A stretch of 64,000 nucleotides of DNA from Candidatus Saganbacteria bacterium (GTDB taxonomy: Bacteria > Margulisbacteria > WOR-1 > O2-12-FULL-45-9). Made by a program: the position numbers and the translations under genes. The DNA lies in NCBI GenBank assembly GCA_016932255.1, contig JAFGDE010000012.1, positions 58,049 through 122,048 of the forward strand, in the 5' to 3' direction. Below, piece after piece: positions 6,493 through 55,430 of this stretch. Each line of letters starts with the position of its first letter. Position 1 is the stretch's first letter. Under the pieces are notes generated by a model, which was not told where the DNA came from, ran no database searches, and worked only from the letters and a program-made list of their open reading frames with translations.

Positions 6493-7206
6493 CTATAAAC
6501 CGCCGTAACCGGTCAATTCCATCAGCCAGAACGATATTATCTTAAAATAATCCGCGGCCAGTAGCAAGCCCACGATCACCAGAAAGACGCCGGCGATCCT
6601 ATGTATCAGAGGCAGTCTATCCTGGAGTTGTTTGAGCAAAGAGATAAAATGGTCGACCGCCAGTGAAGCCAGGAAAAGCGGCAGTCCCAAGCCAAGTGAA
6701 AAGGCCACCAGCAGCAGCGCGCCCTGCCCGGCCATTCCGCTCTGCGCGGCCAGGGTCAGGATCCCGGCCAGGACCGGCCCGACACAGGGCGACCAGCCTA
6801 GGGCAAAGACCATCCCCACAATAAAAGTGCCCAGATATCCGGAAGGCTTGGCCGCCAGAGTCATTTTACGTTCAATGTCCAGGAAAGGCAGTTTAAGCAG
6901 ACCGATCAGATAAAAGCCCAGCAGGATAAGAAAACCACCGCCCAGCACCCGCAACAGGTCACACAGGTTGAAAAGCAGGTCACCCAGCAAGCCGGCCGCC
7001 GAACCCAGCAGGGTAAATATAAAAGTGAAGCCGGCGATGAACAACAGGGAATGGATAATGGTCTTTAAACGCACATTCTTGACCTCTTCGAACGAAAGGC
7101 CTGTGATATAGACCAGATAAGCCGGCACCAGCGGCAAAAAACAGGGAGAAAAGAAAGCCAGCACGCCGCCGCCAAATGCAATGAATAGACTGATGTTTTG
7201 ATTCAT
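6493..7206 (-). CDS. ccdA: Cytochrome c-type biogenesis / thiol-disulfide transporter CcdA (DsbD family)
   Basis: 237 aa, six TM segments, FSPCFLPLVPAYL and SPCVGPVL Cys motifs. Confidence 0.8.
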   Translation of the reverse strand: MNQNISLFIAFGGGVLAFFSPCFLPLVPAYLVYITGLSFEEVKNVRLKTIIHSLLFIAGFTFIFTLLGSAAGLLGDLLFNLCDLLRVLGGGFLILLGFYLIGLLKLPFLDIERKMTLAAKPSGYLGTFIVGMVFALGWSPCVGPVLAGILTLAAQSGMAGQGALLLVAFSLGLGLPLFLASLAVDHFISLLKQLQDRLPLIHRIAGVFLVIVGLLLAADYFKIISFWLMELTGYGGL

Positions 7207-7736
7207 TGGATCAGCGGCAGGAATTCAGACCATCTCCAGTGGCGCGCTCCGGTGATACGGCCGATTATCCGGCCGGACCGGTCGATGATAATGGTCGTGG
7301 GAAAAGCTCGAATGCCGTAAAGGCGGGCTATTTTGCCGTCGCTATCCAGCAGCACCGGAAAAGTATGACCCTCATTATCAACATACTGCTTGACCCGTTC
7401 CTGCGGCTCATCAACGCTGACCGCCAGGACGACGAATTTGTTCTTATCGGAATCGTTGTGCATTTGCTGGATGGTCGGCAACTCTGACCGACACGGCGGG
7501 CACCAGGTCGTCCAAAAATGCAGGAAGACCAGTTTGCCTTGATGGTCGCTCAAGCGGTGGACATTACCTTTCAGGCCGCGCAGAGTGAAGTTAGAGGCAG
7601 CCACCAGCTTAGCCTCAGGGGCCCTGGGCACTTTGCCCATCGCCTGGACCCCGGCACCCAGCCCCTGGACCCAAAAGCAAACCAAGAGGAACAGAGCGAT
7701 ATATCTCAGAGCTTTACGATGCATTTGGTCGGACAC
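7203..7736 (-). CDS. TlpA/ResA-like periplasmic thiol:disulfide oxidoreductase
   Basis: 177 aa, signal-anchor plus thioredoxin fold with WCPPC. Confidence 0.75.
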   Translation of the reverse strand: MSDQMHRKALRYIALFLLVCFWVQGLGAGVQAMGKVPRAPEAKLVAASNFTLRGLKGNVHRLSDHQGKLVFLHFWTTWCPPCRSELPTIQQMHNDSDKNKFVVLAVSVDEPQERVKQYVDNEGHTFPVLLDSDGKIARLYGIRAFPTTIIIDRSGRIIGRITGARHWRWSEFLPLIQ

Positions 7737-8500
7737 TTGGCCACGGCAGGTTCAGCCGCAGCATCCCCTTTTTCATAATCAACGCGGGCCAGATTATCCT
7801 TGATCTCATAAGCGCCGGGCGCGTTCTTGACGCAAAGATTGCAGCCGATACAGCCAACCTTACAGGCTTTGCGCACCACAGCAACCTTATCCTTTGAATT
7901 ACAGCTGACCACAACGCGATTGGAACACGGGACCAGTTCAATTATTTTTCTGGGACAGGCATGGACGCACAGGCCGCAGGCCGTACATTTCAATTCATCA
8001 ACATGCGGCAGGCCGTCTTCCCCCATTTTGATCGCGTTAAAAGGACAGACAGCCACACAGTCGCCAAAGCCGAGACAGCCATAAGTGCAGGCCTTATACC
8101 CTCCGGCGACCAGTTCAGCAGCCGCGCAGGTCTTGACCCCTTGATAATCAGCCCGGGCCGCGGCCAACTCTTTAGTACCGCCGCATTTGACCACCGCGCG
8201 CTTCTTGATCCCCGCCTCTGCTGTGATGCCCAGGATCTCAGCGATCTCATCCATTACTACGGATCCGCCGGGCGGGCAATTCAATCCGGTCAGGTCGCCC
8301 TGGGCCACGATCTTTTCCGCCAGGTCATGGCAGCCAGCCTGGCCGCAGGCACCGCAGTTAAGCCCGGGCAAGGCCGCGCTTACAGCCAGGACCTTGGGGT
8401 CCTCTTCGACATGGAGCTTCTCCGAAGCCACGGCCAGCACACTGGCAAAGAACAGTCCCAGTCCGCCCATTGTTACTAAAGCTATGAGAAATAAATTCAT
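7706..8500 (-). CDS. rnfB: Rnf complex subunit B (polyferredoxin)
   Basis: N-terminal TM helix, CGACGQAGC cluster, multiple 4Fe-4S ferredoxin CxxCxxCxxxCP motifs. Confidence 0.85.
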   Translation of the reverse strand: MNLFLIALVTMGGLGLFFASVLAVASEKLHVEEDPKVLAVSAALPGLNCGACGQAGCHDLAEKIVAQGDLTGLNCPPGGSVVMDEIAEILGITAEAGIKKRAVVKCGGTKELAAARADYQGVKTCAAAELVAGGYKACTYGCLGFGDCVAVCPFNAIKMGEDGLPHVDELKCTACGLCVHACPRKIIELVPCSNRVVVSCNSKDKVAVVRKACKVGCIGCNLCVKNAPGAYEIKDNLARVDYEKGDAAAEPAVAKCPTKCIVKL

Positions 8501-8541
8501 CCCACTCTCTCCATCCCTCTATCTCCCCATCTCTCCATCTG

Positions 8542-9120
8542 TTAACCCGATATAAGCCCCGCAAAGCCCATAAAAGCCAGGGCCAGTAATCCCGCAATGA
8601 TCAGCGTTATCGGTGCACCTTTAAAATGCTCCGGTACCGGCGCCAGGTCAAGTTCCTCGCGGATGCCGGCCATGATGCAAAGCGCCAAAGTAAAACCCAC
8701 CCCGGCGGCCAGACCAAAAGTCACGCTTTGAAGAAAATTATATTCTCTTAAAGCTGCTAAAAGCGCCAGGCCCAGGATAGCGCAGTTAGTGGTGATCAGC
8801 GGTAAAAATATGCCCAGCGAGCGGTAAAGCGCCGGCGAGGTCTTTTTGATGAACATTTCCACGAACTGCACCAGCGAAGCAATAACTATAATGAAAGAGA
8901 CATACTGCAAGAATGGCAGGCCAAAGGGAACAAGGATGAGATTATTGATCAACCAGGTGACCATAGCGGCCAGCACCATGACAAAGGTCGTGGCCAAGCC
9001 CATGCTGAGCGCTTTTTCCAGTTTATTGGACACGCCCAGGAAGGGACAGATGCCCAAAAACATGCTCAGAACAAAGTTATTGACGATCGCCGCAGAGATA
9101 AAAATCAATAACAGGTCCAT
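8542..9120 (-). CDS. rnfA: Rnf complex subunit A
   Basis: 192-aa polytopic membrane protein with full-length RnfA/NqrE-family similarity. Confidence 0.9.
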
Positions 9121-9121
9121 G

Positions 9122-9778
9122 TTAGTTCACCTCCGCCTGCGAGTCAACAGGCAGGCAAGCAGGCGCGGCCTGCTGTTGACCGGTCTTTTCTTTGAGATAG
9201 TTCAGCAGGCCGATCAGCAGGCCCAGAGTAATAAAAGCGCCGCCCGGCAGGATCATGATGACCCATGGTTCGAAATTGACCAGGCCGAACAGCGAGCCCG
9301 TACCAAAGATCTCCCTGATCGTGCCCAGCACGGTCAGAGCAACAACAAAACCAGAGCCCATACCCAGCGCATCGACAAAGGACTTCGCCGGGTCGTTCTT
9401 TGAAGCAAAGACTTCGGCCCGGCCCAGGATGATACAGTTGACCACGATCAAGGGCACGAACGGTCCTAAGGCCTTGGAAATATCAGGAAAGATGCCTTTG
9501 AGGAACAGGTCAGCCATGGTCACAAAAGTGGCAATGACCACGATAAATGAAGCGATCCTGACCTGGTCAGGGATAAGTTTCCTGATCAATGAGACGATCG
9601 TACTGGAACAGACCAGAACAAAGGTCGTGGCTAATCCCATGGACAGGCCGTTGATGGTGCTGGTCGTTACGGCCAGTGTTGGGCACATGCCCAGCAACTG
9701 CCTGAAGACCGGGTTCTCGTCCCAGAGGCCTTTGAGGTATTCCGTAAGATATCCGCGTTTTACTTTGCTTGCTGCCAT
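9122..9778 (-). CDS. rnfE: Rnf complex subunit E
   Basis: 218 aa, RnfE/NqrD family ([10 protein letters not shown]...). Confidence 0.9.
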
Positions 9779-10308
9779 TGCTGCACCGTTTTATTAATGA
9801 TGTTCACTACCGCCCGGCTGGAGATGGTCGCGCCTGTGATCGCCTCGATCTGGTTTAACTTGCTGGGCTTGGCGCTTTTGACATATTCGATCGGCGGCTT
9901 GCTGGCCAGGCCCTTGAACTGGGCGGTAAAAGCGCCTTCCGCGATCTTAGCGCCCAGGCCGGGTGTTTCAACCTGCTCCAGCACGATCATGCCAGTGAAC
10001 TTGGAAAAGTCGGCATTAACGCCGACCATCATCTTGATCACGCCCTGATAACCATTGCCCTGACAAAGAATAGCTGTACCGGTCTTTTCTCCCCGTTGAC
10101 CATAGCATTCAAAATACGTCAGGTCTTTGTCCGATATCTGCTTGTATTTGACCGTGCCGGGTACGACCTGAAAGACCGCAGCGTCGTTGGCCTTGATCTG
10201 GTTGACCTTGATCTTGGGCTCGGCCCATTGATACATCAGCGAGAGAATGCCGCCGGAGACCAGGCCGATCACGCTCAGGACCACGATCATTTTTGTCAGT
10301 TTGTTCAC
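9760..10308 (-). CDS. rnfG: Rnf complex subunit G (FMN-binding)
   Basis: Start moved to GTG 10308 (VNKLTKMIVVLSV...) overlapping the rnfD TGA (GTGA). The ORF-track N-terminal 60 aa overlap rnfD and are probably not translated. Confidence 0.75.
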   Translation of the reverse strand: MNKLTKMIVVLSVIGLVSGGILSLMYQWAEPKIKVNQIKANDAAVFQVVPGTVKYKQISDKDLTYFECYGQRGEKTGTAILCQGNGYQGVIKMMVGVNADFSKFTGMIVLEQVETPGLGAKIAEGAFTAQFKGLASKPPIEYVKSAKPSKLNQIEAITGATISSRAVVNIINKTVQQWQQAK

Positions 10309-11273
10309 TTGACCGGCCTCCCAAAACGTTTTTGCGGATAGCCCAGGATGCGCGGCCTGGTATAGCAGTTGATCAGCGGCACAAAGGCGTTCATGATCAG
10401 AATCGAATACATGACGCCTTCGGGCAGTCCGGAAAAAAGCCGGATGACCACGACCAGAACACCAGCAGCTGCGCCAAAGACCCACATACCTTTAGGCGTG
10501 AGCGGCGAAGTGACCAGGTCGGTCGCCATATAGAGCGCGCCCAGCATCAAGCCGCCCGCCAGCAAATGGAACAGCGGATCAGGATATTTTGTCGGATCGA
10601 TCAACCAGAACAAGCCGCCCAGGACAGCCACACTGCCCAGATAGCTGGCCGGAATGCGCCAGTTGATCAGGCCTTTGAACATAAAGAAAAGCGCGGGTAA
10701 AAGCAACAGTAAAGCCGAGGTTTCGCCGATACAGCCGCTGACATTGCCAAAGAACAGCTTGCTGTAGACGGTTGTCTGCTGTTGGAACTTCATCAGGGCC
10801 AGCGGCGTGGCAGAAGAGACCGCCTCAACGCCGCGCCAGAACATCGGCGCAGCCCAGGTAGTCATCTGGACAGGAAAAGCCGCGGCCAGAAAGGCCCGGC
10901 CGACCAAAGCGGGATTAAAAATATTATAGCCTAGGCCGCCGAACAGCATCTTGCCCACAGCAATGGCAAAGACAGCACCCAAGGCTGCCTGCCACCAGGG
11001 CATGACCGGAGAAAGCGTTAAGGCCAGCAGCAGACCGGTCAGCGCGGCACTGCCGTCGCTGATGGTCGGTTCGACTTTCATTATCTTATTGACCGCCAGC
11101 TCGGTCAGCACAGCCGCGATAACGCTGGACAGGATGACCAGCAGGGCCGGCCAGCCGAACAGGACGATACCAGCAATGGTCGCCGGCAGCAGGCCAATGA
11201 TAACGGTCCGCATCATCAGCGGCACTGAGCCAAAGTCATTACTGTGCGGAGATGAAGTTATCAGAAAGCTCAT
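10305..11273 (-). CDS. rnfD: Rnf complex subunit D
   Basis: 322-aa membrane subunit, RnfD/NqrB family. Confidence 0.9.
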   Translation of the reverse strand: MSFLITSSPHSNDFGSVPLMMRTVIIGLLPATIAGIVLFGWPALLVILSSVIAAVLTELAVNKIMKVEPTISDGSAALTGLLLALTLSPVMPWWQAALGAVFAIAVGKMLFGGLGYNIFNPALVGRAFLAAAFPVQMTTWAAPMFWRGVEAVSSATPLALMKFQQQTTVYSKLFFGNVSGCIGETSALLLLLPALFFMFKGLINWRIPASYLGSVAVLGGLFWLIDPTKYPDPLFHLLAGGLMLGALYMATDLVTSPLTPKGMWVFGAAAGVLVVVIRLFSGLPEGVMYSILIMNAFVPLINCYTRPRILGYPQKRFGRPVK

Positions 11274-12583
11274 TTCATTTGCCTCAGCTTATACTTTGCC
11301 AGTCTGACCCACTGGACGATCGGGATCTTAGCCGGACAAACATATGCGCAGCAGCCGCATTCAATGCAGTCCTGGCCGCCCCACTCTTCGAACTCGCCGT
11401 ACTTGCCGTTATCAGCAAAGGCCGCCAGGCGGCTCGGGACAAGGTACATCGGGCAGTTGCTGACACAGCGTCCGCATTTGACGCAGGGATATATCTTTTC
11501 TTCCTTAATGTCGCGCTGGCGCAGGACCAGGATACAGCTGGTCGCTTTGACGACCGGTATGTCGACCGAGGTCTGGGCCACGCCCATCATCGGCCCGCCC
11601 ATGATGATCTTGGAGGCATCCTCGCACAGGCCGCCGCACTGGTCGATCACTTCCTTAAAACTGGTGCCGATGCGCACCAAGAGGTTCTTGGGCTCTTTAA
11701 TGCCCGGCCCGGTCACGGTCAGGACCCGGCTGACCAACGGCTGGCCGCGGGTCAATGCCTCAAAGATGGCAACAGCAGTTCCGACATTGACGACCACCAC
11801 ACCGATATCGAGCGGCAGGCCTCTGGCCGGCACCTCGCGATCCAGTGCCGCCTTGATCAGCATCTTCTCCCCGCCCTGGGGATATTTCGTTTCAAGCACG
11901 ACAACATCAACGATAGCTTCAGAATGCTTGCGCGCCACTGATTTAAGCCGTTCTATCGCGTCAGGCTTATTGTCCTCGATACCGACAACGACTTTTTCCG
12001 CACCGGCGGCCCTGGCCGCGAGCAGCGCCCCCTGAACGATCTCATCAGCTTTTTCCACCATGACCCGGTGGTCAGCTGTGATATATGGCTCGCACTCGCA
12101 GCCGTTGACCAGGATCGTATAGATCTTCTTGCCCTCAGGCGGGGCCAGTTTAACATGGGTCGGGAAAGCCGCCCCACCCAGACCGACAATACCTGCCTCA
12201 CGCACGGCCTGCCTGATCTCTTCAGGCCTCAAAGCATCGGTCTTTCTGCTGTCAACGGTCCTGGCCTTGGGCTCTTCTTCCTCCCCAGCTTCGATGACCA
12301 CAGCAAGGATCTCTGTGCCGCAGGGATGCGGCATTTTATCTATCTTGGTGACCTTGCCGGAAATAGAGGCATGGACCGGCGCGGAAATGAACTTAGAGGA
12401 ATCAGCTATTTTCTGTCCCTGGACGACCTGGTCGCCCACTTTGACCAGCGGCTCACAGGTGGCCCCGGTGTGCTGATGAAGCGGGATAATGACCTTTTTC
12501 GGGGCCGGCAGCTCCCTAATGGCCTTCCCCTGGGTTGCGGTCTTATTGTATTTTAGATGTATTCCCTGAGCGAAAGTTTTCAT
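11270..12583 (-). CDS. rnfC: Rnf complex subunit C (NADH-binding, Fe-S)
   Basis: 437 aa. C-terminal CxxCxxCxxxCP pair (CVKCGRCVSNCP, CIECGCCAYVCP) and RnfC N-terminal domain. Confidence 0.9.
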   Translation of the reverse strand: MKTFAQGIHLKYNKTATQGKAIRELPAPKKVIIPLHQHTGATCEPLVKVGDQVVQGQKIADSSKFISAPVHASISGKVTKIDKMPHPCGTEILAVVIEAGEEEEPKARTVDSRKTDALRPEEIRQAVREAGIVGLGGAAFPTHVKLAPPEGKKIYTILVNGCECEPYITADHRVMVEKADEIVQGALLAARAAGAEKVVVGIEDNKPDAIERLKSVARKHSEAIVDVVVLETKYPQGGEKMLIKAALDREVPARGLPLDIGVVVVNVGTAVAIFEALTRGQPLVSRVLTVTGPGIKEPKNLLVRIGTSFKEVIDQCGGLCEDASKIIMGGPMMGVAQTSVDIPVVKATSCILVLRQRDIKEEKIYPCVKCGRCVSNCPMYLVPSRLAAFADNGKYGEFEEWGGQDCIECGCCAYVCPAKIPIVQWVRLAKYKLRQMK

Positions 12584-12654: not shown

Positions 12655-13086
12655 TTAAGCTGGGAAAATGACCTTAATTACCTTCGCTCTCAATGATCCG
12701 GCCTGCTGGATGCTCCGGTCATACAAGCTGATGATGAAATAGGTCAAGGCAGCTGAACCCAAGCCGCAGACAATGCCGCCCCATTCCTGCCAGACCGCCA
12801 GACCCAGGATACGCGCTAAGGTCGAGCCGATCACATAACCAAGCAGCAGACCGAGCACGGGGACGATAAAAACGATAAAAGATGCCTTGACTATCACTTG
12901 TGAAGGGATTTCTATCTCAACAATATCGCCTTGTTTTGCTCCGAGATCGTTAACAGCTTCAATGCCGACCAGTCCCTCTCCGACATTATGACATAAACGG
13001 CATTTGTCGCAGGCTGCGCTGCGCTGGAAAGCGATCAAAACAATATTGCCCCGGACAGGTCCGGCAACGACCCCCTGTTCCCTCAT
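12655..13086 (-). CDS. rseC: RseC/MucC-family protein (SoxR-reducing system component)
   Basis: 143 aa. N-terminal CDKCRLCHNVGEG Cys cluster and two C-terminal TM helices as in E. coli RseC. Directly upstream of rnfC. Confidence 0.65.
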   Translation of the reverse strand: MREQGVVAGPVRGNIVLIAFQRSAACDKCRLCHNVGEGLVGIEAVNDLGAKQGDIVEIEIPSQVIVKASFIVFIVPVLGLLLGYVIGSTLARILGLAVWQEWGGIVCGLGSAALTYFIISLYDRSIQQAGSLRAKVIKVIFPA

Positions 13087-13457
13087 TAACCGCTCTTTTT
13101 GGCCAGGACCTTCTTGATACGCTCAACGAGATCATCCGGATCGAATGGCTTGGTGATATAATCTGACGCGCCAACCTTCAGGCCCATATCAACATCCTTC
13201 TGCTCTCGCTTGACCGAGACCATAATGACCGGGATATCTTTGTATGTCGAAGCCTTGAGCTCGGCACAAAACTCATACCCGCTCTTGCCCGGCATCATGA
13301 TATCGAGCAGGATCAAGGTCGGTGCGCTTAACCTGACCTTTTCCCAGGCCGCATTGGCATTAGCAGCAGCTTCGACCTCATAGCCAAAAGGCCTGAGGAT
13401 ATCCTCCATCAGGATCGATATCTCAGGTGCGTCATCGACCACCAGGATCTTGGTCAT
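13086..13457 (-). CDS. Stand-alone response-regulator receiver domain (CheY-like)
   Basis: 123 aa: VDD acidic pocket, phospho-acceptor D in LILLDIMMP, K near C-terminus. ATGA overlap with rseC. Confidence 0.8.
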   Translation of the reverse strand: MTKILVVDDAPEISILMEDILRPFGYEVEAAANANAAWEKVRLSAPTLILLDIMMPGKSGYEFCAELKASTYKDIPVIMVSVKREQKDVDMGLKVGASDYITKPFDPDDLVERIKKVLAKKSG

Positions 13458-14887
13458 CTTGACTGTCCTTCCTTCTCTTTGGCCGACGCCTCTTCAACCG
13501 ATTTAGCCGCCGGAAAATCCTGGCCTGCCTGGCCGCCGATCACGTCAAGATTGTTCCTGATCGCGTCCGTGGTCACCCAGTCGCAAACCTTGAGGATCAT
13601 GCGCGGCCGGCCTTTGCTCATTCTGTAAATGTTCTCTATCGCTTCGTCAGTGAACGGCTTGATCCCTTTGCCGCCGGCATCCTCGATGCGCTTGCGGATC
13701 ATCTCTTTGGTATCAGCCTGGCTCAAGTGGTCGATGTAGACCTCCAGTACGATGCGGTCAAAGAACGGCGGGCTGTCCTTCTTGATCTTTTCCCTGGTCT
13801 CAGGCAGTCCGCCCAGCACATAATTCACTCCCTGGATATCACCCAGGCTGCGCATCTGTTGTTCGATCTCAGCCGTGAACTCATGCGCCTCGTCCAGCAA
13901 AATGACCAGCGGTTTCTTTGCCTTCTTGACCAATTCCTCAATATCGTATAGGGATATCTTTTTGGTCTTGCTGAAACGCCCGCCTTTCAGCTCGCCGACC
14001 ACGAACCTGAGCATGTCATCAAAATTAAGCGGCGGCCGGGCGATATAGACCGCATGGTTATTAGGTTTAAGATTGTCGGTCAGCCAGCGCAGCAGAGTGG
14101 TCTTGCCCACACCCTTGTCTCCGTATACCAGGATATGGCCGCTGCGCGTGTTTATCTTTTCCATGATCGAACCTACCTGAGCCGAATAGCCGGTGAACAA
14201 ATTGGGCAAGACATCCAGAGTAAAAGGATTGTGCTTCCAGCCGAACTTGTCGAACCATTTTTTCTGGTTGCCGGTAATCCCTGACCAGACCTTGAGTCTG
14301 GTGCCGCAAACCTGGCAAAACTCAGCTGTCTCCGGGTTCTTGGTCTTGCAGTCCGGGCAGGTCTGACGCCGGCGGCTGGCAATCGTATCACGGATGATGA
14401 AATAAGTCCCGCGGGCGGCAATGATCAGAGTGAAAACAATGACTGTCAGGATCAGCAGCATGATCTGATTAATGGTCGTTTCCATATCGGCAAAATCAGG
14501 TGATTTGGCTTGCGGCAGAACGATCGCCGGCGCACCCCTTGATGCGGCGATCGTGGTGGTCGTGACCCGAATGGCCGCCGGCCGCCGGACCGGAGTTGTC
14601 CGGACAACAGGTTGAGGCTTGGGGGCCCTGCTGGTCGTCGGCAGTGTGGTTGTCGGTGTTTCGCTCACGCCCATCTCTCGTCTGACAACGCCCAATAATT
14701 GCTTTGCCTTATCGTGGGCGGAATCGATCGACAGGACCCTTTCCAGATCAGCCTCTGCTCCAGCCAGGTCACCGCTTAAATATTTCTGGGCCGCACGGCT
14801 GTAAAGCTCGTCAGAAGTGATCCCCGCCGCCAGCGAAGCCGTGATGCAGACCAATAACAGTGAAAGCAGCAGCTTTTTCCAGTCCAC
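13454..14887 (-). CDS. Membrane AAA+ ATPase with periplasmic TPR-like N-domain, Pro/Thr linker, TM helix, zinc ribbon and ExeA/GspA-like AAA domain
   Basis: Signal/anchor MDWKKLLLSLLLVC, second TM INQIMLLILTVIVFTLII, CPDCKTKNPETAEFCQVCGTRL zinc ribbon, Walker A GDKGVGKTT, Walker B LLDEAHEF. Confidence 0.6.
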   Translation of the reverse strand: MDWKKLLLSLLLVCITASLAAGITSDELYSRAAQKYLSGDLAGAEADLERVLSIDSAHDKAKQLLGVVRREMGVSETPTTTLPTTSRAPKPQPVVRTTPVRRPAAIRVTTTTIAASRGAPAIVLPQAKSPDFADMETTINQIMLLILTVIVFTLIIAARGTYFIIRDTIASRRRQTCPDCKTKNPETAEFCQVCGTRLKVWSGITGNQKKWFDKFGWKHNPFTLDVLPNLFTGYSAQVGSIMEKINTRSGHILVYGDKGVGKTTLLRWLTDNLKPNNHAVYIARPPLNFDDMLRFVVGELKGGRFSKTKKISLYDIEELVKKAKKPLVILLDEAHEFTAEIEQQMRSLGDIQGVNYVLGGLPETREKIKKDSPPFFDRIVLEVYIDHLSQADTKEMIRKRIEDAGGKGIKPFTDEAIENIYRMSKGRPRMILKVCDWVTTDAIRNNLDVIGGQAGQDFPAAKSVEEASAKEKEGQSR

Positions 14888-14901
14888 TTTGATACCCCCT
14901 A

Positions 14902-16341
14902 TTATTTCTTTTCCAGTTCCATGATGTTCTGGAGTTTTTTATAAAGCTGGAGCGCCTGAACATTGCCGGGATCTATCTTCAGCACTTCCTGGACCTCTTT
15001 CATTGCCTCTGTATAGTTCTCCTCAGCGATATACTTCCTGGCCAGACCTAAGTGATTGGCCGCTTCCTGTTTAACCTGTTCGGCCACTTCCTTTTCCAGG
15101 GCTTCCTGGGATTCCCGGATCATTTTAACTGCTTCAGGATGGGACGGAACCACCTTGAGCGCCTTATTAAATTCAGCAATGGCTTCCAGATACTGTTTTT
15201 CAGCAAAGAATTTATTGCCGTTATCGATAAAGACCTGGGCTTCTTCCTGCTTCTCAGCTTTAATATCTTTCTCGACCGTGCCTTCTGCCTTTCCAGACAG
15301 CGCGTTCTCAGCTTTGGTCAACAATGCCCGGGCGTCGGCATCATTGGGGTCCAGCTCCAGTACGTTCTTGGCCGCGACGATCGCCTCAGAGAACCTGGCT
15401 TTATCATAATAAGCCTTAGCCATGGCCAGATATTCCAGTTTGATGGCCTGACGGTCATCCCTGGTGCCGAAAGAATAGCTGAAACTGATCTGATGGGCCG
15501 AGCCAAGATCGTCATGGGCCACATAAGCATAATCCAGGCCATAATTGCCGGAACTGATACCTACTCCGGCCCTCATCCGGCCGGCAGCTGAACCATATCT
15601 AAGAGCGACCAGACCGCTGAGCAAATATTCCAGACCATAATTGAGCGAAGCAGTTGACCCGGCACTGCTGACATAGTCAATCGCCAGGGAAAGCTTGTTC
15701 TCAAGCAGCCGGTTAACCGAAGCTAATCCTAAACGATATGTCTGGGGCAAGGGGGTATTTTCCGAGATGAACTTCAGCGGCGTGCCAACGTTCTGCACGG
15801 CCAGGCCAAAGGTCAGGTTCGGATTGAATTCGTAGAGCAAACCGGCGTCAAGGGCTGTGGCAACGGCTGATGAATTCTCCAAATTTTCAGTGATGTTCTT
15901 GGCCCCGATCCCCCAAGCAAAACGCTCATTGACCCTGCGACCCCAGGCAATTGCCAGGCCGGTGTCGGTCGCTTTGATCGTGGAGGTCGGCGCGCCGGTC
16001 GAGTCATAGCCCTGGATGTTGCCTGAATCAAGGATAGAATAGCTGCCGCCAAAAACACCATTATCGGTCGGATACGCCAGATCAAGGTATTGGTGCTTGA
16101 CATCAACGAACCACTGGTTATACATGTAGCCGATCTGAGTGAATTCTGTCCTAGACAGGCCGGCAGGGTTCCAGAAAACAGCTGACGATCCTTCTGCCAA
16201 AGCCACATAGGCGTCCCCCATGGCGATCGCCCGGGCGCCGCCGCCCAAAAGGAGGAACTGGCCGCCGGCAGTGCCAGCACCGGCCCAGGCAAGATCGATC
16301 AGGAGTAATAGCGCGCAACCTGTTATAAATATTTTTTTCAT
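14902..16341 (-). CDS. PorV/PorQ-like outer-membrane beta-barrel fused to C-terminal TPR repeats
   Basis: Signal peptide then GARAIAMGDAYVALAEGSSAVFWNPAGL N-terminal motif typical of PorV/PorQ/UPF0164 barrels. C-terminal ~180 aa with three TPR-like repeats. Confidence 0.5.
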   Translation of the reverse strand: MKKIFITGCALLLLIDLAWAGAGTAGGQFLLLGGGARAIAMGDAYVALAEGSSAVFWNPAGLSRTEFTQIGYMYNQWFVDVKHQYLDLAYPTDNGVFGGSYSILDSGNIQGYDSTGAPTSTIKATDTGLAIAWGRRVNERFAWGIGAKNITENLENSSAVATALDAGLLYEFNPNLTFGLAVQNVGTPLKFISENTPLPQTYRLGLASVNRLLENKLSLAIDYVSSAGSTASLNYGLEYLLSGLVALRYGSAAGRMRAGVGISSGNYGLDYAYVAHDDLGSAHQISFSYSFGTRDDRQAIKLEYLAMAKAYYDKARFSEAIVAAKNVLELDPNDADARALLTKAENALSGKAEGTVEKDIKAEKQEEAQVFIDNGNKFFAEKQYLEAIAEFNKALKVVPSHPEAVKMIRESQEALEKEVAEQVKQEAANHLGLARKYIAEENYTEAMKEVQEVLKIDPGNVQALQLYKKLQNIMELEKK

Positions 16342-16679
16342 TTGTTTATGATCAACCGTCCTTTCGCTTCCTGGCTCTGGCTCTTGATCAGGTAGAGGTA
16401 GATCCCGGAAACGACATCTTCCCCAGCTTGGTTCTTCAGGTCCCAGCTGGCCTGTCCGTCGCCGTCGGTCTCGCTGATCCTGCGCACCAGCGAGCCGTCC
16501 AGCATCGTGATCTCGATGGTGCAGACAGCCGCCAGGTCGATAAAAACGACTTCGTTCGATCCCTGTCCCATCACGTACGGGTCAGGGAAGACCTGGCTGG
16601 TGGTCACGGTCTCGGTACAACCCGACAGCAGCAGACCGGCGATAAACAATAGACCAATTGTTATAATTAATGGTCTCAT
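16338..16679 (-). CDS. Mini-lipoprotein consisting essentially of a T9SS type-A C-terminal sorting domain (FlgD-Ig-like)
   Basis: 113 aa; lipobox LLLSGC; C-terminus ...GDGQASWDLKNQAGEDVVSGIYLYLIKSQSQEAKGRLIINK matches the TIGR04183-like tail and the adhesin tail. 4-nt overlaps on both sides. Confidence 0.5.
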   Translation of the reverse strand: MRPLIITIGLLFIAGLLLSGCTETVTTSQVFPDPYVMGQGSNEVVFIDLAAVCTIEITMLDGSLVRRISETDGDGQASWDLKNQAGEDVVSGIYLYLIKSQSQEAKGRLIINK

Positions 16680-19600
16680 TTGATCACCAGCAATTTACCT
16701 CTCTTGATATCATTGCCGCTCTTGACCACATAAAGATACAGGCCGCTGGCCAGAGCCTCGCCGCTGTCATTCTGCACGTTCCAGCTGGCCACGCCGTCGC
16801 CGTCGGTCTCATTGATCGTCTTGACCAGATCGCCCCGCAGGGTAAAGATCTTGATCGTGCTGACCGAACCCAGGTTGGTAAAGGTCACTGTGGTATGGTT
16901 ATCAGGTGGATTCGGCTTGAATGGGTTCGGGTAGGCATAGGCAGCTGAAACATCCTCAAAAGCCGTGGCCATCAGGGTATAGACCGAGAAATGGCTGACA
17001 ACAGCTGAAACACAGTTCTGGTCAGCATCAACGATCGAGTTGGGCATCCTGATCCACAACCCGTGATCCTCATCCAGGCGATAGATCTTGAGCGCCTTTT
17101 CCATGATCCGCGGGCTGGTGTTATCAACATAACCGTCATCATTCTCGTCGTCGTAATAAAGACTGATTGTGACCGGTGCCGCAAAATCAGAGGTTATCCG
17201 GACATCATCCGTGCCGTAAGCGTTGATCTCGCTGATCGATGAAGTAAAGGGATATTTAAAAGGATCGTTCTCCAGCAGGACCTTGGCATTGGCCTCGGTG
17301 ATCTTGGCCGGGTCGATCTCCCTGGGATCATTGATCGGGTTGCGGTTGATGTCAATGTAAGCGTCATTGCTGACGGCTCCCAATGACAGGACCACTTTGG
17401 TCCGGCCGTCAGCGCTGAAGAAGATATTGCTGATCTGGCGGTCCAACACCGTCCTGAAAGTCCAGGTAAGGTCGAGCGTCAGGTCGTTGCCGTCAAAGTC
17501 TTTGACCGGGCCTGACAGTCTGACACGGTAGGTATAACCCTTTGACAGAGTAGCGGCCGGAGTGAAAGTGAGGACACGGTTCCTTGCCCAGCTGAAAGCG
17601 CCGCTGACCGGCGTATAAACGAAATTGCCCGAGTTGTCGTAAACAGCTTCCATGGAAAAGACCGCCTGGACTTCCAGTGTGCTCATGTCCCTGTCAAAGG
17701 TTACGCTGACCACGGCTTCGGGCGAGACATTGTCAGCTCCGGCGGACGGGAAATACGAGACAACGCCTTCAGGGACCGGCGGCAGGCCGGTAGTATTGGC
17801 AGCGTCGCTCAGGTCGGACTGGCTGGTCGTCTGGTCCGCCGCGTCGGAAGTATTGCGGGACTTTACTTTGAAATAATAATCCGAGACCGGATCGCTTAAG
17901 CCCGTGACAGTGATCGTCCCCCAGTCAAAGGTCGGCTGCCAGGCCGCACTATCGCCGAGAGTGCCGTCGGTCTGGACATATTTATTATGCGAAGAAACGT
18001 AAATGGAATATTCGAGGCCGGCGACCTCGGCCGGATATTTATTTATCTTGACATCGGCAGTTGTCGCTGTCCCATTGCTCACCGTCGGCACCGCCGGAGT
18101 ATACGGCTTTATATACTGTTTTACTGTGCTGGGCGAAGTGTTCTCATTGTCGCCGATATTGCCGAAATCATCGACCGCGGTGCACTTGACCTGGCTGACA
18201 TAGTCATTGCCGTCAAGTGTCGCTCCAACGGCCGTGGCCTGCGGCGATGGCGTGGCGGTATTGGCCTCCCCGGTGGTCGGGCTGCCGTACGCGCCGCCAT
18301 TGAGCGCCAGGTCAAACGTATTGGTATCAGGATTGATCTCGGTAAAGGCCGCGCTAAGCGTTACCGTTGTCTGCCCGGCCCGGGGCTGTGTCTGAATATC
18401 TGTCGCGCTGGCCACGGCAGGATCAAGATTGTCAACATTAAAGCCTGTGGGCGAAACTCCGTACGTGCTGTTGCTGCTGCCGTCATCGACCTGGAACCTG
18501 ATCTGCACGTTCTGACTGTACGCGTCATCGATATATTCCTTGGAATTGTCCCAGACCAGTGTATGCAGAGTGCCGCTCATATCGGAAGCCGAGCTTAAAC
18601 CCGTCTTGGTCCCGGCCACATCTGCGTCAAGGATATTGTTCCAGCCGCCGCCATTGACCTGATATTGCACACTGCCGCTGACGACCGAACAATCGTCAAG
18701 GTCAAGGTCCCGGATCCTGAAAGTAAAGGTTATCCGCCCGCTCCTGTCAGTGGCCTGGACCAGTACCGGCAGCTGGTTCTGCGTTGAACCGTCGTTCAAT
18801 GCCGGAGCTGTGTTGGCGGAAGAAGCGCCGCCGGACAAACTGCTTTCCGGATTATCGCCGTTGGGGTTGCGGGATTTGGTGCTGAAAACATAATTACTCA
18901 CCGGAGCCGATAGTCCCGTGACCGTCTTGGTGCCCCAAGCCGCGATGGTCTGCCAGACCGCGGCGCCGCCCAATGTCCCACCGGCCTGGACATATTGACC
19001 GCCACTCTCACGGATGGCGTATTCCAGGCCGCTGGCTTCACTGGCATTCTTGTTAACAGTAACATTGACCGTTGTGACAGTTGGAGTATCGACCGTCGGC
19101 GCCGGCGGCGTATACGGTGTCACGCCATCATTTGCCGGCGCCAGTGTTTCATTGATGCCGACATTGCCAAAGTCATCAACAGCTACGCAGCGAACTTTGC
19201 TGATATAATCATTGCCATCCAGGGTTGCGCCTGCGGCCACAGCCTGGGCTGACGGATCAGCCGTGTTGCTTTGCCCGGCAGTGCCGGCTCCGTAAGTTGG
19301 ACCGTTAAGCGCCAAATAAAATGTATTGGTATTCGGATTGGATTCAGTGAACGAACAGTCCAGGATAACCGTTGTACCGCCCGCCTGAGGTCGGCTGGTA
19401 ATATCCGTGGCAGCCAGGGCCGCCGGATCAAGATTGTCAACATTAAAGCCTGAAGGCGACGTGCCGTCAGCACTGGTCAAGGCGCCGTCGCTGATATTAA
19501 AGCGCACCTGGACGTTAGTACTGACCGCGTCATCGATATGTTCTTTTGAGTTATCCCAGACCAGTGTATGAAGTGTGCCGGAATAATCAGTTGCCGAGCT

Positions 19601-20410
19601 TAAATTTGTTTTTGTGCCGGTAATATCACCATCGGCGATCGGGTTCCAGCCGCCGCCGTTGACCTGGTATTCAAAACTGCCGTTGACCACGCCGCAGGAA
19701 TCAGCCTCGCCATCCTTGATGCGGAAAGTTATCGCGATTCTACCGGTCCCGTCAGTATATTGTGATAATGCTGGCAGAACATTATCAGAAGAGCCATTAT
19801 TCAAGATCGGGGCAGTATTGAGAGGAGTATAATCAACTGTTGCATAAACCTGCGTTACATAAGGATTCCTTGTAACATCATTAGTATAAACGCCGTAAGC
19901 TTGTAAGGCATTTGAACCAACACCATTGATATCATCCACCGCCCAAGCCAGTCCAGTCTTTGGATTTGTCGCATAGTCATAAGTTCTGGTAGCCCAACTG
20001 TTGGCTGTCGGTGTCACTCCAGGATCGACGGTATCATAATTATTCCCGCCGACCAGAAGCGCTGATCTGATATTTGAAGTCTGACCACCCTGTTTCCTTT
20101 CATGCCTATATGTAAGCCTTAAGAAATTGATCGTTGAGCCAGCCGGCACGCTAAAAGCGGGAAAACTGAACAGGTTTCGTCCCGTTGCTGTAGCCCAGAT
20201 ATAACTGCCATCATCATCAGCCACAGCTTCGTTCACTTTATCATAGTAACTGCCCGTACTGCCTCCCGGGGGATTAATATAATCAATCCAAGTTCCAGTA
20301 TGAGAATGATCGCCAGTAGGCCGCTGGGTCTGCGTAACTGAAAGTGAAGGTAAAGCCCAAACACAGAGAATTACAAATACAATCGTTATATGAATAGCCA
20401 GCCGGCTCAT
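16676..20410 (-). CDS. Giant secreted surface protein/adhesin: signal peptide, two ~337-aa tandem repeat modules (Ig/FN3-like), SbsA-type Ig domain, T9SS type-A C-terminal sorting domain
   Basis: 1244 aa. Repeat 1 (NTAPILNNGSSDNVLP...) and repeat 2 (NTAPALNDGSTQNQLP...) are ~60% identical. C-terminus YAYPNPFKPNPPDNHTTVTFTNLGSVSTIKIFTLRGDLVKTI...SGLYLYVVKSGNDIKRGKLLVIK is a classical Por_Secre_tail pattern. Confidence 0.8.
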   Translation of the reverse strand: MSRLAIHITIVFVILCVWALPSLSVTQTQRPTGDHSHTGTWIDYINPPGGSTGSYYDKVNEAVADDDGSYIWATATGRNLFSFPAFSVPAGSTINFLRLTYRHERKQGGQTSNIRSALLVGGNNYDTVDPGVTPTANSWATRTYDYATNPKTGLAWAVDDINGVGSNALQAYGVYTNDVTRNPYVTQVYATVDYTPLNTAPILNNGSSDNVLPALSQYTDGTGRIAITFRIKDGEADSCGVVNGSFEYQVNGGGWNPIADGDITGTKTNLSSATDYSGTLHTLVWDNSKEHIDDAVSTNVQVRFNISDGALTSADGTSPSGFNVDNLDPAALAATDITSRPQAGGTTVILDCSFTESNPNTNTFYLALNGPTYGAGTAGQSNTADPSAQAVAAGATLDGNDYISKVRCVAVDDFGNVGINETLAPANDGVTPYTPPAPTVDTPTVTTVNVTVNKNASEASGLEYAIRESGGQYVQAGGTLGGAAVWQTIAAWGTKTVTGLSAPVSNYVFSTKSRNPNGDNPESSLSGGASSANTAPALNDGSTQNQLPVLVQATDRSGRITFTFRIRDLDLDDCSVVSGSVQYQVNGGGWNNILDADVAGTKTGLSSASDMSGTLHTLVWDNSKEYIDDAYSQNVQIRFQVDDGSSNSTYGVSPTGFNVDNLDPAVASATDIQTQPRAGQTTVTLSAAFTEINPDTNTFDLALNGGAYGSPTTGEANTATPSPQATAVGATLDGNDYVSQVKCTAVDDFGNIGDNENTSPSTVKQYIKPYTPAVPTVSNGTATTADVKINKYPAEVAGLEYSIYVSSHNKYVQTDGTLGDSAAWQPTFDWGTITVTGLSDPVSDYYFKVKSRNTSDAADQTTSQSDLSDAANTTGLPPVPEGVVSYFPSAGADNVSPEAVVSVTFDRDMSTLEVQAVFSMEAVYDNSGNFVYTPVSGAFSWARNRVLTFTPAATLSKGYTYRVRLSGPVKDFDGNDLTLDLTWTFRTVLDRQISNIFFSADGRTKVVLSLGAVSNDAYIDINRNPINDPREIDPAKITEANAKVLLENDPFKYPFTSSISEINAYGTDDVRITSDFAAPVTISLYYDDENDDGYVDNTSPRIMEKALKIYRLDEDHGLWIRMPNSIVDADQNCVSAVVSHFSVYTLMATAFEDVSAAYAYPNPFKPNPPDNHTTVTFTNLGSVSTIKIFTLRGDLVKTINETDGDGVASWNVQNDSGEALASGLYLYVVKSGNDIKRGKLLVIK

Positions 20411-20450
20411 TTACTTGATATTTTATGCTTATAATAGCGATGTTTCAAGC
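20411..20450 (-). promoter_or_regulatory. Sigma70-like promoter of the adhesin operon (TTGAAA-N17-TAAAAT), start codon 9 nt after the -10
   Basis: Minus strand reads gcTTGAAAcatcgctattataagcaTAAAATatcaagtaaATG. Confidence 0.35.
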
Positions 20451-20474
20451 TGAAATTTCAATGATCCAGGATCA
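20451..20474. promoter_or_regulatory. Two adjacent perfect palindromes (TGAAATTTCA 20451-60; TGATCCaGGATCA 20462-74) immediately upstream of the adhesin-operon -35
   Basis: Read directly; operator-like dyads. Confidence 0.35.
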
Positions 20475-20478
20475 ATTA

Positions 20479-21926: not shown

Positions 21927-21981
21927 TTGCCGATTATATTAGAACATATCACAGCTAAAAGCAACAAACCTTTCCCCTGCG

Positions 21982-22010
21982 TTGAAAAGGCCCGGCGGCT
22001 GCGCTATAAT
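21982..22010 (+). promoter_or_regulatory. Sigma70-like promoter of panD (TTGAAA-N17-TATAAT), ATG 9 nt downstream
   Basis: TTGAAA 21982-87, TATAAT 22005-10, ATG 22020, no SD. Confidence 0.45.
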
Positions 22011-22019
22011 AATAGTTCA

Positions 22020-22361
22020 ATGTTGCTTACGATACTTAAATCCAAGATACACTTGGCCAAAGTGACCGATAACCAGCTCTATTACGAAGGCAGTATTGGC
22101 ATTTGCAAGGACCTGATGAAAGCCTGCGGCCTGTTGGCCGGCGAAAAAGTCCAGGTGCTCAATTTCAATAATTCCAACCGTTTTGAGACTTACGTGATCG
22201 AAGGCCAGAAAGGCGAGATCTCCCTGCGCGGGCCGGCGGCCAAGCTCGGCAAAAAAGGCGACAAGCTGATCATCCTGGCCTACGCCCTGATGGACCCGAA
22301 CGAGGCAAAGATGTTCAAGCCCAAGGTCATCAAAGTTGATGACCGGAATGAGTTGAGATGA
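22020..22361 (+). CDS. panD: Aspartate 1-decarboxylase
   Basis: MLLTILKSKIHLAKVTDNQLYYEGSIGI aligns with PanD (pyruvoyl Ser in YEGS). Start moved to ATG 22020. Confidence 0.85.
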   Translation: MLLTILKSKIHLAKVTDNQLYYEGSIGICKDLMKACGLLAGEKVQVLNFNNSNRFETYVIEGQKGEISLRGPAAKLGKKGDKLIILAYALMDPNEAKMFKPKVIKVDDRNELR

Positions 22362-47248: not shown

Positions 47249-47853
47249 AAAATTATAGATCTGTTATTATATTGCTGATCGCATCACTGATCCTGAGCAG
47301 CGCGGCAGGCGCCTGGCGCATCAGCAGGGAACTCCAGCAGGAGCTTGAAGAAAAAAAAGCCGCGGTGACCAAAGAACCTGACAGCGCGGACGCCTTGTTC
47401 GATCTGGCCGTCACACAAGCCTATACCAATTACCTGATCGACGGGATGAGCACGATCAAAAAGATCCCTGAGGCTGATCCCACATATAAAGAAAAAGCCC
47501 TGACCAAATATATCATCCTGGTGACAGAGAAACCGGGCGACTGGAAACTGCGTTTCAGGCTGGCTTTCGCTTATTACTTCAACGATGACCGGGATGACGC
47601 CATCAGGGAGTTCGAGAACGTTCTTAAGATCGATCCTTACAATGTCTGGGCCTACGGTTATCTTGCCCTGCTCTATGGCGAGATTGGCGACGTTGACAAA
47701 GCTATGGAAACAACCCGCGCGGGCCTGAAGATCGACAGCAACGTCGCGGCCCTGCACCTGCTCCTCTCGGAAGGCTACTATAAAAAGGGCGACGCCTGGA
47801 ACGGCTTTTTTGAAAGGATGGAGGCGCTGCGCCTGAAAGCCCTGGGCTATTGA
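47245..47853 (+). CDS. Secreted TPR-repeat protein
   Basis: Signal peptide plus TPR-like repeats; 4-nt overlap with hldE. Confidence 0.55.
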   Translation: MKNYRSVIILLIASLILSSAAGAWRISRELQQELEEKKAAVTKEPDSADALFDLAVTQAYTNYLIDGMSTIKKIPEADPTYKEKALTKYIILVTEKPGDWKLRFRLAFAYYFNDDRDDAIREFENVLKIDPYNVWAYGYLALLYGEIGDVDKAMETTRAGLKIDSNVAALHLLLSEGYYKKGDAWNGFFERMEALRLKALGY

Positions 47854-47854
47854 A

Positions 47855-52494: not shown

Positions 52495-52495
52495 C

Positions 52496-53707: not shown

Positions 53708-53718
53708 CTGGCCTCCGC

Positions 53719-55418: not shown

Positions 55419-55430
55419 TGACCCCTCCCT

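Follow-up and report, generated by a model that had tools for sequence, protein, structure and literature searches.

A candidate surface-anchoring cassette of CTD proteins, a PorV/PorQ-like barrel, an ExeA-like ATPase and a receiver in Candidatus Saganbacteria

A cassette of five minus-strand genes in a 64-kb stretch of DNA from Candidatus Saganbacteria (Margulisiibacteriota), referred to here as the window, encodes a giant protein ending in a C-terminal domain (CTD) of the kind known from type IX secretion systems (T9SS), a CTD-only lipoprotein, a PorV/PorQ-like outer-membrane barrel with a tail of tetratricopeptide repeats (TPR), an ExeA-like AAA+ ATPase and a receiver. Margulisbacteria are a phylum sister to Cyanobacteria and lie outside the Fibrobacteres-Chlorobi-Bacteroidetes (FCB) group. 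We interpret the cassette, with moderate confidence, as a dedicated surface-anchoring device built on a cognate CTD and barrel and extended by the ATPase and the receiver. An earlier analysis of the same DNA (the original prediction) had described a six-gene operon with rseC as its last gene, and had suggested a cargo-shuttle or anchoring device that might be coupled to the redox state of Rnf through RseC. Dedicated anchoring is the part of this idea that we favour, and the five-gene module behind it is conserved; the coupling through RseC and Rnf was not supported. The five genes form a real conserved module with RseC outside it. The locus consists of two adjacent units, the second being rseC-rnfCDGEAB, in which RseC is the usual Rnf accessory or leader protein.

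The open reading frame (ORF) list places the six minus-strand genes exactly where they had been predicted. The giant CTD protein, for brevity called the adhesin (20410-16676, 1244 aa), is followed by the CTD-only lipoprotein (16679-16338, 113 aa), the barrel protein (16341-14902, 479 aa), the ATPase (14887-13454, 477 aa, GTG start), the receiver (13457-13086, 123 aa) and RseC (13086-12655, 143 aa). The junctions, read from the sequence, also agree with those described before: ATGA stop/start overlaps occur at 16676-79, 16338-41 and 13454-57, a TAATG overlap of 1 nt at 13086, and a 14-nt gap at 14888-14901, within which an AGGGGG Shine-Dalgarno motif stands ahead of the GTG start of the ATPase gene. 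All 66 ORFs of the window were scanned. Pfam and NCBIfam models, together with fold searches, back every domain assignment that the original prediction had put forward for checking with hidden Markov models (HMMs).

Conservation of the five-gene cassette

The loci compared were contigs encoding homologues of the barrel or of the ATPase, together with one match from a genome collection (L002), and they were analyzed with BLASTP and with HMMs of our own. In the homology searches, the barrel protein proved identical to an NCBI entry of a Candidatus Saganbacteria genome, and its relatives carry Margulisiibacteriota annotation; the one exact match retrieved for it was a 5-kb Logan contig. The profile scan of the genome collection returned two Margulisbacterial loci, three barrel loci from Elusimicrobia and many matches to TPR only. 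The gene-neighbourhood comparison proposed earlier showed that the order adhesin, CTD lipoprotein, PorV-TPR protein, AAA+ ATPase and receiver is kept in at least 10 independent Margulisbacterial contigs. All five genes, in the same order and with the 4-nt overlaps, are found in L002, L024, L026, L028, L031 and L033, and the cassette proteins of the related loci are 40-65% identical to those of the window. A more divergent locus, L035, retains all five genes with an ATPase 37% identical to that of the window, and L003 and L030 hold truncated or variant copies. Duplication and decay shape the evolution of the cassette family.

In L034 and L036 the cassette takes a split form with a ~370-aa IPT/TIG protein that has a CTD-like end, a barrel-only gene, a ~260-aa TPR-ending protein and the ATPase. 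Since these loci keep the cargo, the barrel, the TPR protein and the ATPase, the fused and the split barrel/TPR arrangements are two versions of one module. Further arrangements were observed among the related loci. L028 (2-12471) carries tandem cassettes, with two sets of adhesin, barrel and ATPase and one terminal receiver. At L030 3236-7317, a second ATPase is preceded by a 221-aa TPR-only remnant of the barrel protein. At L036 11683-16272 (Margulisiibacteriota, GCA_041658645.1), SLH-domain proteins lie near the split-type cassette, and a receiver and a histidine kinase are encoded on the opposite strand just past the ATPase.

Two of the loci, L002 (3311-17221) and L033 (1-15763), have their cassette inside an operon for a type IV filament. 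Downstream of it in both are a PilM-PilN fusion, two ~170-aa proteins and a 421-427-aa secretin; upstream in L002, three N_methyl pilins and a 407-aa unknown protein lie with the cassette in one packed same-strand array. This setting brings up the explanation that the cassette is an accessory of a type IV filament or of a machinery resembling type II secretion systems (T2SS): the ATPase and the TPR would act like GspA/GspB or MshM/MshN in secretin assembly, while the adhesin would exit by the secretin, or be carried on the pilus, before the barrel captures it. Besides the pilin-PilM-PilN-secretin array of L002 and the same downstream genes in L033, an unrelated locus (L054) points in this direction, as do the known function of ExeA in secretin assembly (PMC4098917) and the weak matches of the TPR tail to the Amuc_1098 and PilW type IV pilus models. 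L054 is a second, independent adjacency to pilus genes, in which CTD-barrel pairs are followed by a type IV pilin, a prepilin-peptidase (PilD) fragment and PilM. However, L002 and L033 share their flanking genes (gpsA/plsY-like) and so represent one ancestral placement. No pilus genes or secretin were found in the 64-kb window by the 66-ORF scan and by tblastn with the pil proteins of L002, and no homologue of a pilin, PilMNOP or a secretin lies beside the cassette in L024, L026, L028, L030, L031 or L035. Furthermore, the adhesin has a Sec signal peptide and not a prepilin leader, and the TPR similarities are generic. We regard the explanation as unlikely. As the barrels of L002 and L033 are only 41% identical in spite of the common flanks, differential retention of ancient tandem cassette copies is suggested.

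The literature searched on secretion in Margulisbacteria and Saganbacteria, on T9SS, on PorV/PorQ and on ExeA yielded no description of such a module, in line with the earlier statement that it matches no described secretion or regulatory module.

CTD proteins and their barrel

The adhesin opens with a signal peptide and an N-terminal domain, continues with two ~331-aa repeats and a Big_5 Ig-like domain (55.3 bits) and ends in a CTD; the Sec signal peptide of the cargo was recognised from the hydrophobic N-termini of the translations. The repeats, each a three-domain unit, are a tandem duplication of residues 206-536 and 541-878 (17777-19795, minus strand), which by local alignment are 59.5% identical over 331 aa, and the duplication is recent. 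The CTD (residues ~1160-1244; 16679-16933), which we propose to be the tag that docks to the barrel, reaches 32.5 bits with TIGR04183 over residues 1160-1242, against a cutoff of 23. In the lipoprotein the same model reaches 24.6 bits over residues 30-112. With Pfam PF18962 the CTD stays at 22.8, under the cutoff of 27. The two CTDs are 40% identical over 99 aa, and the best CTD match of both is the C-terminus of PorZ.

The lipoprotein has a lipobox, LLSG-C21, and a CTD paralogous to that of the adhesin follows almost immediately. The Gly-Cys of the lipobox is kept in eight of the eight aligned orthologues, and the lipoprotein occurs in L002, L024, L026, L028a, L030, L031, L033 and L035. Orthologues of the adhesin, 55-65% identical, are present in L002, L024, L026, L028 and L031. 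A CTD HMM built from the cassettes matched nothing but cassette proteins, both in the window and in the regions flanking the cassettes of the related Margulisbacterial loci. A homology search with the 95-aa CTD alone scored six candidates, too few to be informative.

The barrel protein was assigned to the PorV/PorQ family by NF033709, with 141 bits against a cutoff of 90 over residues 25-291. These residues of the 479 are predicted to form a 14-stranded outer-membrane barrel (~25-291; 15469-16269, minus strand). The protein lies below the cutoffs of the equivalog models for PorV (NF033710, 52.9 against 250), PorQ (NF033711, 96.4 against 220) and PorV2 (49.6 against 325), and the PorQ model outscores the PorV model. 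It continues in a helical TPR tail, predicted to be periplasmic (residues ~296-478; 14908-15456), with matches to TPR_11, TPR_2 and TPR_19; the best NCBIfam match of the tail, TIGR02917 (PrsT), remained under its cutoff at 45.8 bits. The structure prediction that had been called for gave a PorV-like barrel followed by TPR helices, the AlphaFold model having strands across residues 69-290 and then eight helices (H296-H478). In Foldseek, the PDB entries that it matches best are two PorV chains from the SprA translocon of Flavobacterium, 8gl6_F and 6h3i_F (E-values of 1.9e-11 and 3.9e-10; template modelling scores on the target of 0.59 and 0.63), with FadL and TodX ranking behind. The assignment as a PorV-like barrel-TPR fusion thus holds, but such a fusion is not unusual. 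A barrel-TPR profile run against 1.84 billion protein representatives found 4190 proteins at E ≤ 1e-30, and many of the best-scoring ones are 560-700 aa long and are matched over both barrel and TPR. Judged from these profile matches, barrel-TPR fusions are common.

A barrel of this superfamily could also be a FadL-like uptake channel, importing a hydrophobic substrate that the adhesin captures and the TPR tail passes on to partners, a transfer of the sort proposed for the FadL orthologues of Treponema pallidum. The structural matches to FadL and TodX next after PorV and a weak Pfam match to UPF0164 (treponemal FadL-like) fit this idea, and in TP0548, TP0859 and TP0865 of T. pallidum a 14-stranded barrel of the FadL superfamily is extended at the C-terminus by helices that contain TPR motifs and are presumably periplasmic (PMC8407342). 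This extension was regarded as unique in that paper (PMC8407342), whereas our profile search shows such fusions to be common. The treponemal FadL orthologues differ from the cassette in being assigned to lipid uptake, with no link to CTD cargo or an ATPase. The sequence models place the barrel in the PorV/PorQ family and not with FadL, and its tight, statistically recurrent linkage to CTD genes points to a protein ligand rather than a lipid. We consider an uptake channel very improbable.

This linkage extends well beyond the cassette. A metagenome scan with an 11-sequence barrel-TPR alignment, a 33-sequence alignment being too divergent for a pattern, gave 79 loci (L037-L115), over which the CTD HMM was iterated. 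Among the 80 PorV/Q-like barrels with upstream sequence in these loci, 54 are directly preceded on their own strand by an ORF that ends in a CTD, and a CTD gene is adjacent to 63 of 86 barrels. Cargo proteins are between ~140 and more than 2600 aa long, and in L040 a giant CTD protein, a CTD protein of 137 aa and a barrel-TPR protein form a trio. In Elusimicrobia, likewise a non-FCB phylum, three metagenome-assembled genomes (L004-L006) encode ~1270-1300-aa proteins with a PorZ-like CTD directly upstream of barrel-only PorV/Q genes; these barrels reach 128-134 bits with NF033709, and the CTD proteins show partial similarity to a 'TafC family fimbrial protein' model. The recurrent and translationally coupled pairing of CTD and barrel indicates a cognate ligand-receptor pair. 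By gene content, pairs of CTD cargo and barrel are widespread, and the phylum-specific part is the ExeA-like ATPase with the receiver. No statement of a general pairing between type-A-like CTD cargo and PorV/Q barrels was found in the literature searched.

The periplasmic extension of these barrels is interchangeable. At L054 7222-11432, a PorV/Q-like barrel continues into IPT/TIG repeats and ends, in the same protein, with an OmpA-like domain that binds peptidoglycan. An extension made of TPR here and of IPT and OmpA-like domains there suggests an inward link.

There is precedent for barrels that hold CTD proteins. In Porphyromonas gingivalis the CTD of PorZ is retained and bound to PorQ and that of PorU to PorV, and it is through the uncleaved CTD that each protein stays attached to its cognate barrel on the surface of the cell; a review has proposed 'cognate PorV-like barrels' (PMC10202324). 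The cassette resembles these pairs in its type-A-like CTD, nearest to that of PorZ, and in a PorV/PorQ-family barrel nearer to PorQ. It differs from them in having adjacent, translationally coupled CTD and barrel genes, a ~185-aa periplasmic TPR tail on the barrel, and, in addition, the CTD-only lipoprotein paralogue, the ATPase and the receiver as further members. It also differs in belonging to a Margulisbacterium with no T9SS core in the window and with a barrel under the PorV and PorQ equivalog cutoffs. Type-B CTD proteins bind adjacent PorP/SprF-like barrels, and in SprB-SprF and PG1035-PorP, as in the cassette, a large adhesin gene lies beside its own barrel gene and anchoring is by the CTD (PMC9143113). 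Unlike these, the cassette has a type A-like CTD and a PorV/PorQ instead of a PorP/SprF barrel, and those systems need a full T9SS. Every part of the cassette can be placed in a known family, and there is precedent for the cargo-barrel principle; what is notable is the occurrence outside the FCB group and the association with the ATPase and the receiver.

In the Slam or type XI system, the outer-membrane protein combines a periplasmic TPR region with a 14-stranded barrel and is encoded beside its surface-lipoprotein cargo. The cassette may be similar in its barrel and TPR protein and in its lipoprotein. It differs by the reversed domain order, with the TPR at the C-terminus, by a PorV/PorQ-family barrel and by the lack of a DUF560 match, and on these features it falls outside Slam.

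Instead of a device of its own, the pair might be ordinary T9SS cargo and a PorV/PorQ paralogue, served by a full T9SS acquired from the FCB group and encoded elsewhere in the genome, with export by SprA/Sov and the barrel as one of several shuttle or attachment barrels. That both CTDs exceed the TIGR04183 cutoff, that the barrel exceeds the PorV/PorQ family cutoff and has PorV from the SprA complex as its best structural match, and that our view covers only 64 kb of the genome are all compatible with this. On the other hand, none of the 66 ORFs scanned is a T9SS core gene such as porK/L/M/N or gldK-N, sov/sprA or porU, as had been predicted, and no T9SS core family occurs in the precomputed Pfam lists of ~12 related loci. 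The CTD matches in the window and the related loci are restricted to the cassettes, and the equivalog scores are far under the cutoffs (PorV 53 against 250, PorQ 96 against 220). T9SS is described as confined to Bacteroidota/FCB (PMC10202324, PMC7192894), and no paper tying it to Margulisbacteria was found in the literature searched. An ordinary T9SS pair seems improbable to us.

ATPase, receiver and the proposed device

The ATPase (13454-14887, minus strand) is a bitopic ExeA/GspA-like AAA+ protein, recognised by AAA_22 (PF13401, 61.9 bits against 27) and by its AlphaFold model. It has, in order, an N-terminal hydrophobic helix, a TPR (25-71), a Pro/Thr-rich linker, a transmembrane helix (~135-172), a four-cysteine Zn ribbon (C177, C180, C191 and C194) and the AAA+ domain (215-455) with Walker A at G256-T263 and Walker B at D332-E333. 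In an alignment of 38 ATPase homologues, G256, G259, G261, K262, T263, D332 and E333 are invariant, and the Zn ribbon and an FGW..NPF motif show little or no variation. The model has a predicted local distance difference test score (pLDDT) of 85.7, with a disordered Pro/Thr linker and a long transmembrane helix. As the ATPase domain must be cytoplasmic, the N-terminal TPR is periplasmic, and the inverted ExeA-like topology described earlier is upheld by the model. The Foldseek matches (RuvB, ORC/Cdc6, MuB and TnsC) confirm the AAA+ clade and nothing further, and searching the PDB sequences with the ATPase profile yielded only TPR and P-loop matches of a generic kind. The best NCBIfam match is TIGR03015, the XrtA/PEP-CTERM-associated ATPase, with 94.5 bits below its cutoff of 324.5.

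MSHA pili and PEP-CTERM sorting, too, come with ExeA-type ATPases that have a scaffold or TPR partner, in keeping with the TIGR03015 and TIGR02917 matches of the cassette. The cassette ATPase shares with ExeA/GspA-ExeB/GspB, MshM-MshN and TIGR03015-PrsT (TIGR02917) a membrane-anchored AAA_22 ATPase of the ExeA clade, an N-terminal FG..PF motif and a periplasmic TPR or scaffold partner; those pairs have their role in assembly at the outer membrane or in C-terminal sorting, ExeA-ExeB assisting the assembly of the secretin in the outer membrane (PMC4098917). In contrast to them, its topology is inverted, with the periplasmic TPR first and the ATPase last, a Zn ribbon is inserted, GspB is missing and all curated cutoffs were missed. 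Remote homologues of the ATPase are ExeA/GspA proteins with peptidoglycan-binding domains, whereas PG_binding_1 has no match in the cassette protein and the canonical ExeA/GspA order, an N-terminal ATPase and a C-terminal periplasmic peptidoglycan-binding domain, is not the one seen here. Nor is it linked to GspB and a secretin as ExeA/GspA is, since the window has no secretin and one is adjacent only in L002 and L033.

The receiver (13086-13457, minus strand) is a single-domain CheY-like protein (Response_reg, PF00072, 105 bits against 30.2) with D8, D9, D52, S81 and K103 intact and, at 123 aa in total, no output domain. Its gene follows that of the ATPase with a 4-nt overlap in L002, L024, L026, L028, L031, L033 and L035. 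Downstream of the cassette lie PAS and kinase genes in L024 and a HisKA fragment with thiL in L026 and L028, and in L031 a PAS protein and a histidine kinase with seven transmembrane helices stand between the receiver and rseC. Intact phospho-acceptor residues together with kinase genes downstream in several lineages suggest that the ATPase is under phospho-control.

In the anchoring device that we propose, the adhesin would be exported by Sec and its giant Ig-repeat chain displayed on the surface. The CTD would here be the ligand of the cognate PorV/PorQ-like barrel encoded two genes downstream rather than a general secretion tag, and the barrel would retain the adhesin on the cell surface non-covalently. 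The lipidated CTD-only paralogue could take or compete for the site on the barrel, or heterodimerise with the cargo CTD, acting as a placeholder, a competitor or a lipid anchor. The periplasmic TPR tail of the barrel would meet the periplasmic TPR of the ATPase in a trans-envelope link, which would couple ATP hydrolysis to the way in which the outer-membrane complex is assembled, loaded or turned over. PAS kinases, not the same ones in every genome, would phosphorylate the receiver, and the receiver would modulate the ATPase.

Several points weigh against this device. What we observe is which genes are present, how they are ordered and conserved, their folds and topology, and a statistical linkage between CTD and barrel genes; from this we infer every interaction, namely the CTD-barrel binding, the TPR-TPR contact, the role of the ATPase and the regulation by the receiver. 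The barrel model is of moderate confidence (pLDDT 71.8), its plug and N-terminal region being poorly predicted. A 14-stranded barrel of the FadL/PorV type is too narrow for a folded 1244-aa protein, and the window contains neither SprA/Sov nor a secretin. An ExeA-like ATPase occurs in none of the 79 non-Margulisbacterial barrel loci; the CTD-barrel pair therefore works without it elsewhere, and the role of the ATPase may be unrelated to anchoring. Finally, in four lineages rseC begins at most 18 nt after the last cassette gene (with a 1-nt overlap here), so co-transcription with rnf is possible.

The adhesin would cross the outer membrane by a T9SS encoded elsewhere, by a secretin or by some third route; the T9SS and secretin explanations are compatible with anchoring and differ from it mainly in export. 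A bolder version, to which we give rather little credence, is a T9SS-independent display pathway of CTD and PorQ-like barrel in which the ATPase, acting through the paired TPRs and gated by the receiver, would energise loading, export or release, with a secretin taking part in some lineages.

The rnf unit and the neighbouring genes

RseC (12655-13086) is an RseC/MucC-family protein (PF04246, 89.8 bits against 24.4), and 71 nt separate the stop of its gene from the start of rnfC, which agrees with the spacing given before. RnfC (12583-11270, 437 aa; TIGR01945, 556 bits) opens the minus-strand rnfC-D-G-E-A-B operon (7706-12583), whose genes match NQR2_RnfD_RnfE, FMN_bind, Rnf-Nqr (twice) and FeS/Fer4 models. 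If the 7.8-kb cassette operon and rnf were one functional unit, a cargo shuttle could sense the redox state of Rnf through RseC. The 1-nt overlap of the receiver gene and rseC in the window would suit such a unit, as would a distance of 8-18 nt between the last cassette gene and rseC in L003, L030 and L031, and this adjacency is kept across lineages whose barrels are only 54-67% identical. However, rseC adjoins the cassette in only four lineages, and the cassette occurs without a nearby rseC-rnf in L002, L024, L026, L028, L033, L035 and L036. In the window, L003, L030 and L031, rseC stands upstream of rnfC at a distance of 21-71 nt in every case, but its other neighbour is not fixed, being the receiver (window, L003), a second AAA ATPase (L030) or a histidine kinase (L031). 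This constant rnfC side and variable other side assign RseC to rnfC, as its leader gene, and not to the cassette. In organisms without the cassette the linkage is the same: rseC lies directly upstream of rnfCDGEAB in Clostridium ljungdahlii, where it is named an Rnf regulator, and its position and the rnf order there show no difference from the window that matters and explain the last gene of the claimed operon (PMC6203783). RseC works with Rsx/Rnf in E. coli (PMC12174285), and its documented roles concern Rnf/Rsx (PMC12174285, PMC11729352). A coupling of the cassette to Rnf through RseC is thus very improbable; rseC happens to adjoin the cassette in this sub-lineage, and there may be read-through.

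After rnfB, a thioredoxin/AhpC-TSA-like protein and a DsbD/CcdA-type membrane protein are encoded on the minus strand (6493-7736). The thioredoxin-like gene is also kept after rnfB in L030 and L031, and because of this conservation the rnf unit of this lineage may extend to the thiol-redox pair.

At the other end of the cassette, 68 nt precede the adhesin gene. A sigma70-like promoter with flanking palindromes had been described there, at 20411-20474. The promoter match (TTGAAA-17-TAAAAT, 20448-20420) is present, but 13 promoter-like sites per 16 kb compare with 11.7 expected from shuffled sequence; the palindromes TGATCCTGGATCA (20474-20462) and TGAAATTTCA (20460-20451) are likewise real, but with arms of 5-6 nt they have no statistical weight. 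A repeat search found no inverted repeats of at least 10 nt in either intergenic gap, and an Rfam scan of the whole window gave no match and hence no riboswitch or leader RNA to account for the two gaps.

Directly upstream of the adhesin gene, a small secreted or membrane protein of 117 aa (20832-20479, minus strand) is encoded. It has no Pfam or NCBIfam match. Its homologues, 42-43% identical, lie directly upstream of the adhesin in L024 and L031, and in this sub-lineage it may count as a sixth member of the cassette. The start of its gene overlaps by ATGA with a 365-aa ORF (21926-20829, minus strand) that encodes a polytopic membrane protein, one whose C-terminal domain is cytoplasmic and for which no family matched, and that faces panD (21927-22361, plus strand). 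L031 has no such ORF at the syntenic position. We considered whether it was a truncated histidine kinase akin to the kinase of L031 and rejected this, as BLASTP gave no similarity. With two ATGA-coupled ORFs upstream, the second of them conserved before the adhesin in two lineages, the transcription unit may start ahead of the promoter at 20411-20474, at 20832 or 21926.

The remaining genes of the window are housekeeping, lipopolysaccharide and efflux genes. An HldE-like heptose kinase/adenylyltransferase, a TPR protein and an LptC/LptA-like protein are encoded at 45797-48877 (plus strand), which indicates an outer membrane containing lipopolysaccharide. Two TolC/HlyD/ABC efflux clusters lie at 51301-56750 and 57758-62481 on the minus strand. 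A 421-aa ORF (27094-28359, plus strand) has no Pfam match and a weak match to a PorV/FadL-like barrel profile in two stretches (E-value of 2.8e-12), and 4 nt after it follows a protein with TPR and a metallo-beta-lactamase fold (28364-29872); the segment 27094-29872 may be a second pairing of barrel and TPR in this genome. An ORF resembling the 421-aa one was seen in a Spirochaetes locus (L014, 9032-10489).

T9SS biology holds the CTD and the PorV/PorQ/PorP barrels to be specific to Bacteroidota, and pairs of the two are seen here in Margulisbacteria and Elusimicrobia. If the pair works without a T9SS translocon, it would offer a simpler route to surface anchoring and a tractable minimal system for CTD recognition, whereas if these genomes possess a T9SS, its known range would reach lineages related to Cyanobacteria. 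The proposed device also provides a testable role for ExeA/MshM-like ATPases with TPR partners and removes a misleading link to Rnf. Should the T9SS-independent display pathway prove true, CTD/PorV-like recognition would be an ancient and portable sorting principle that predates, or is separate from, the T9SS of Bacteroidota.

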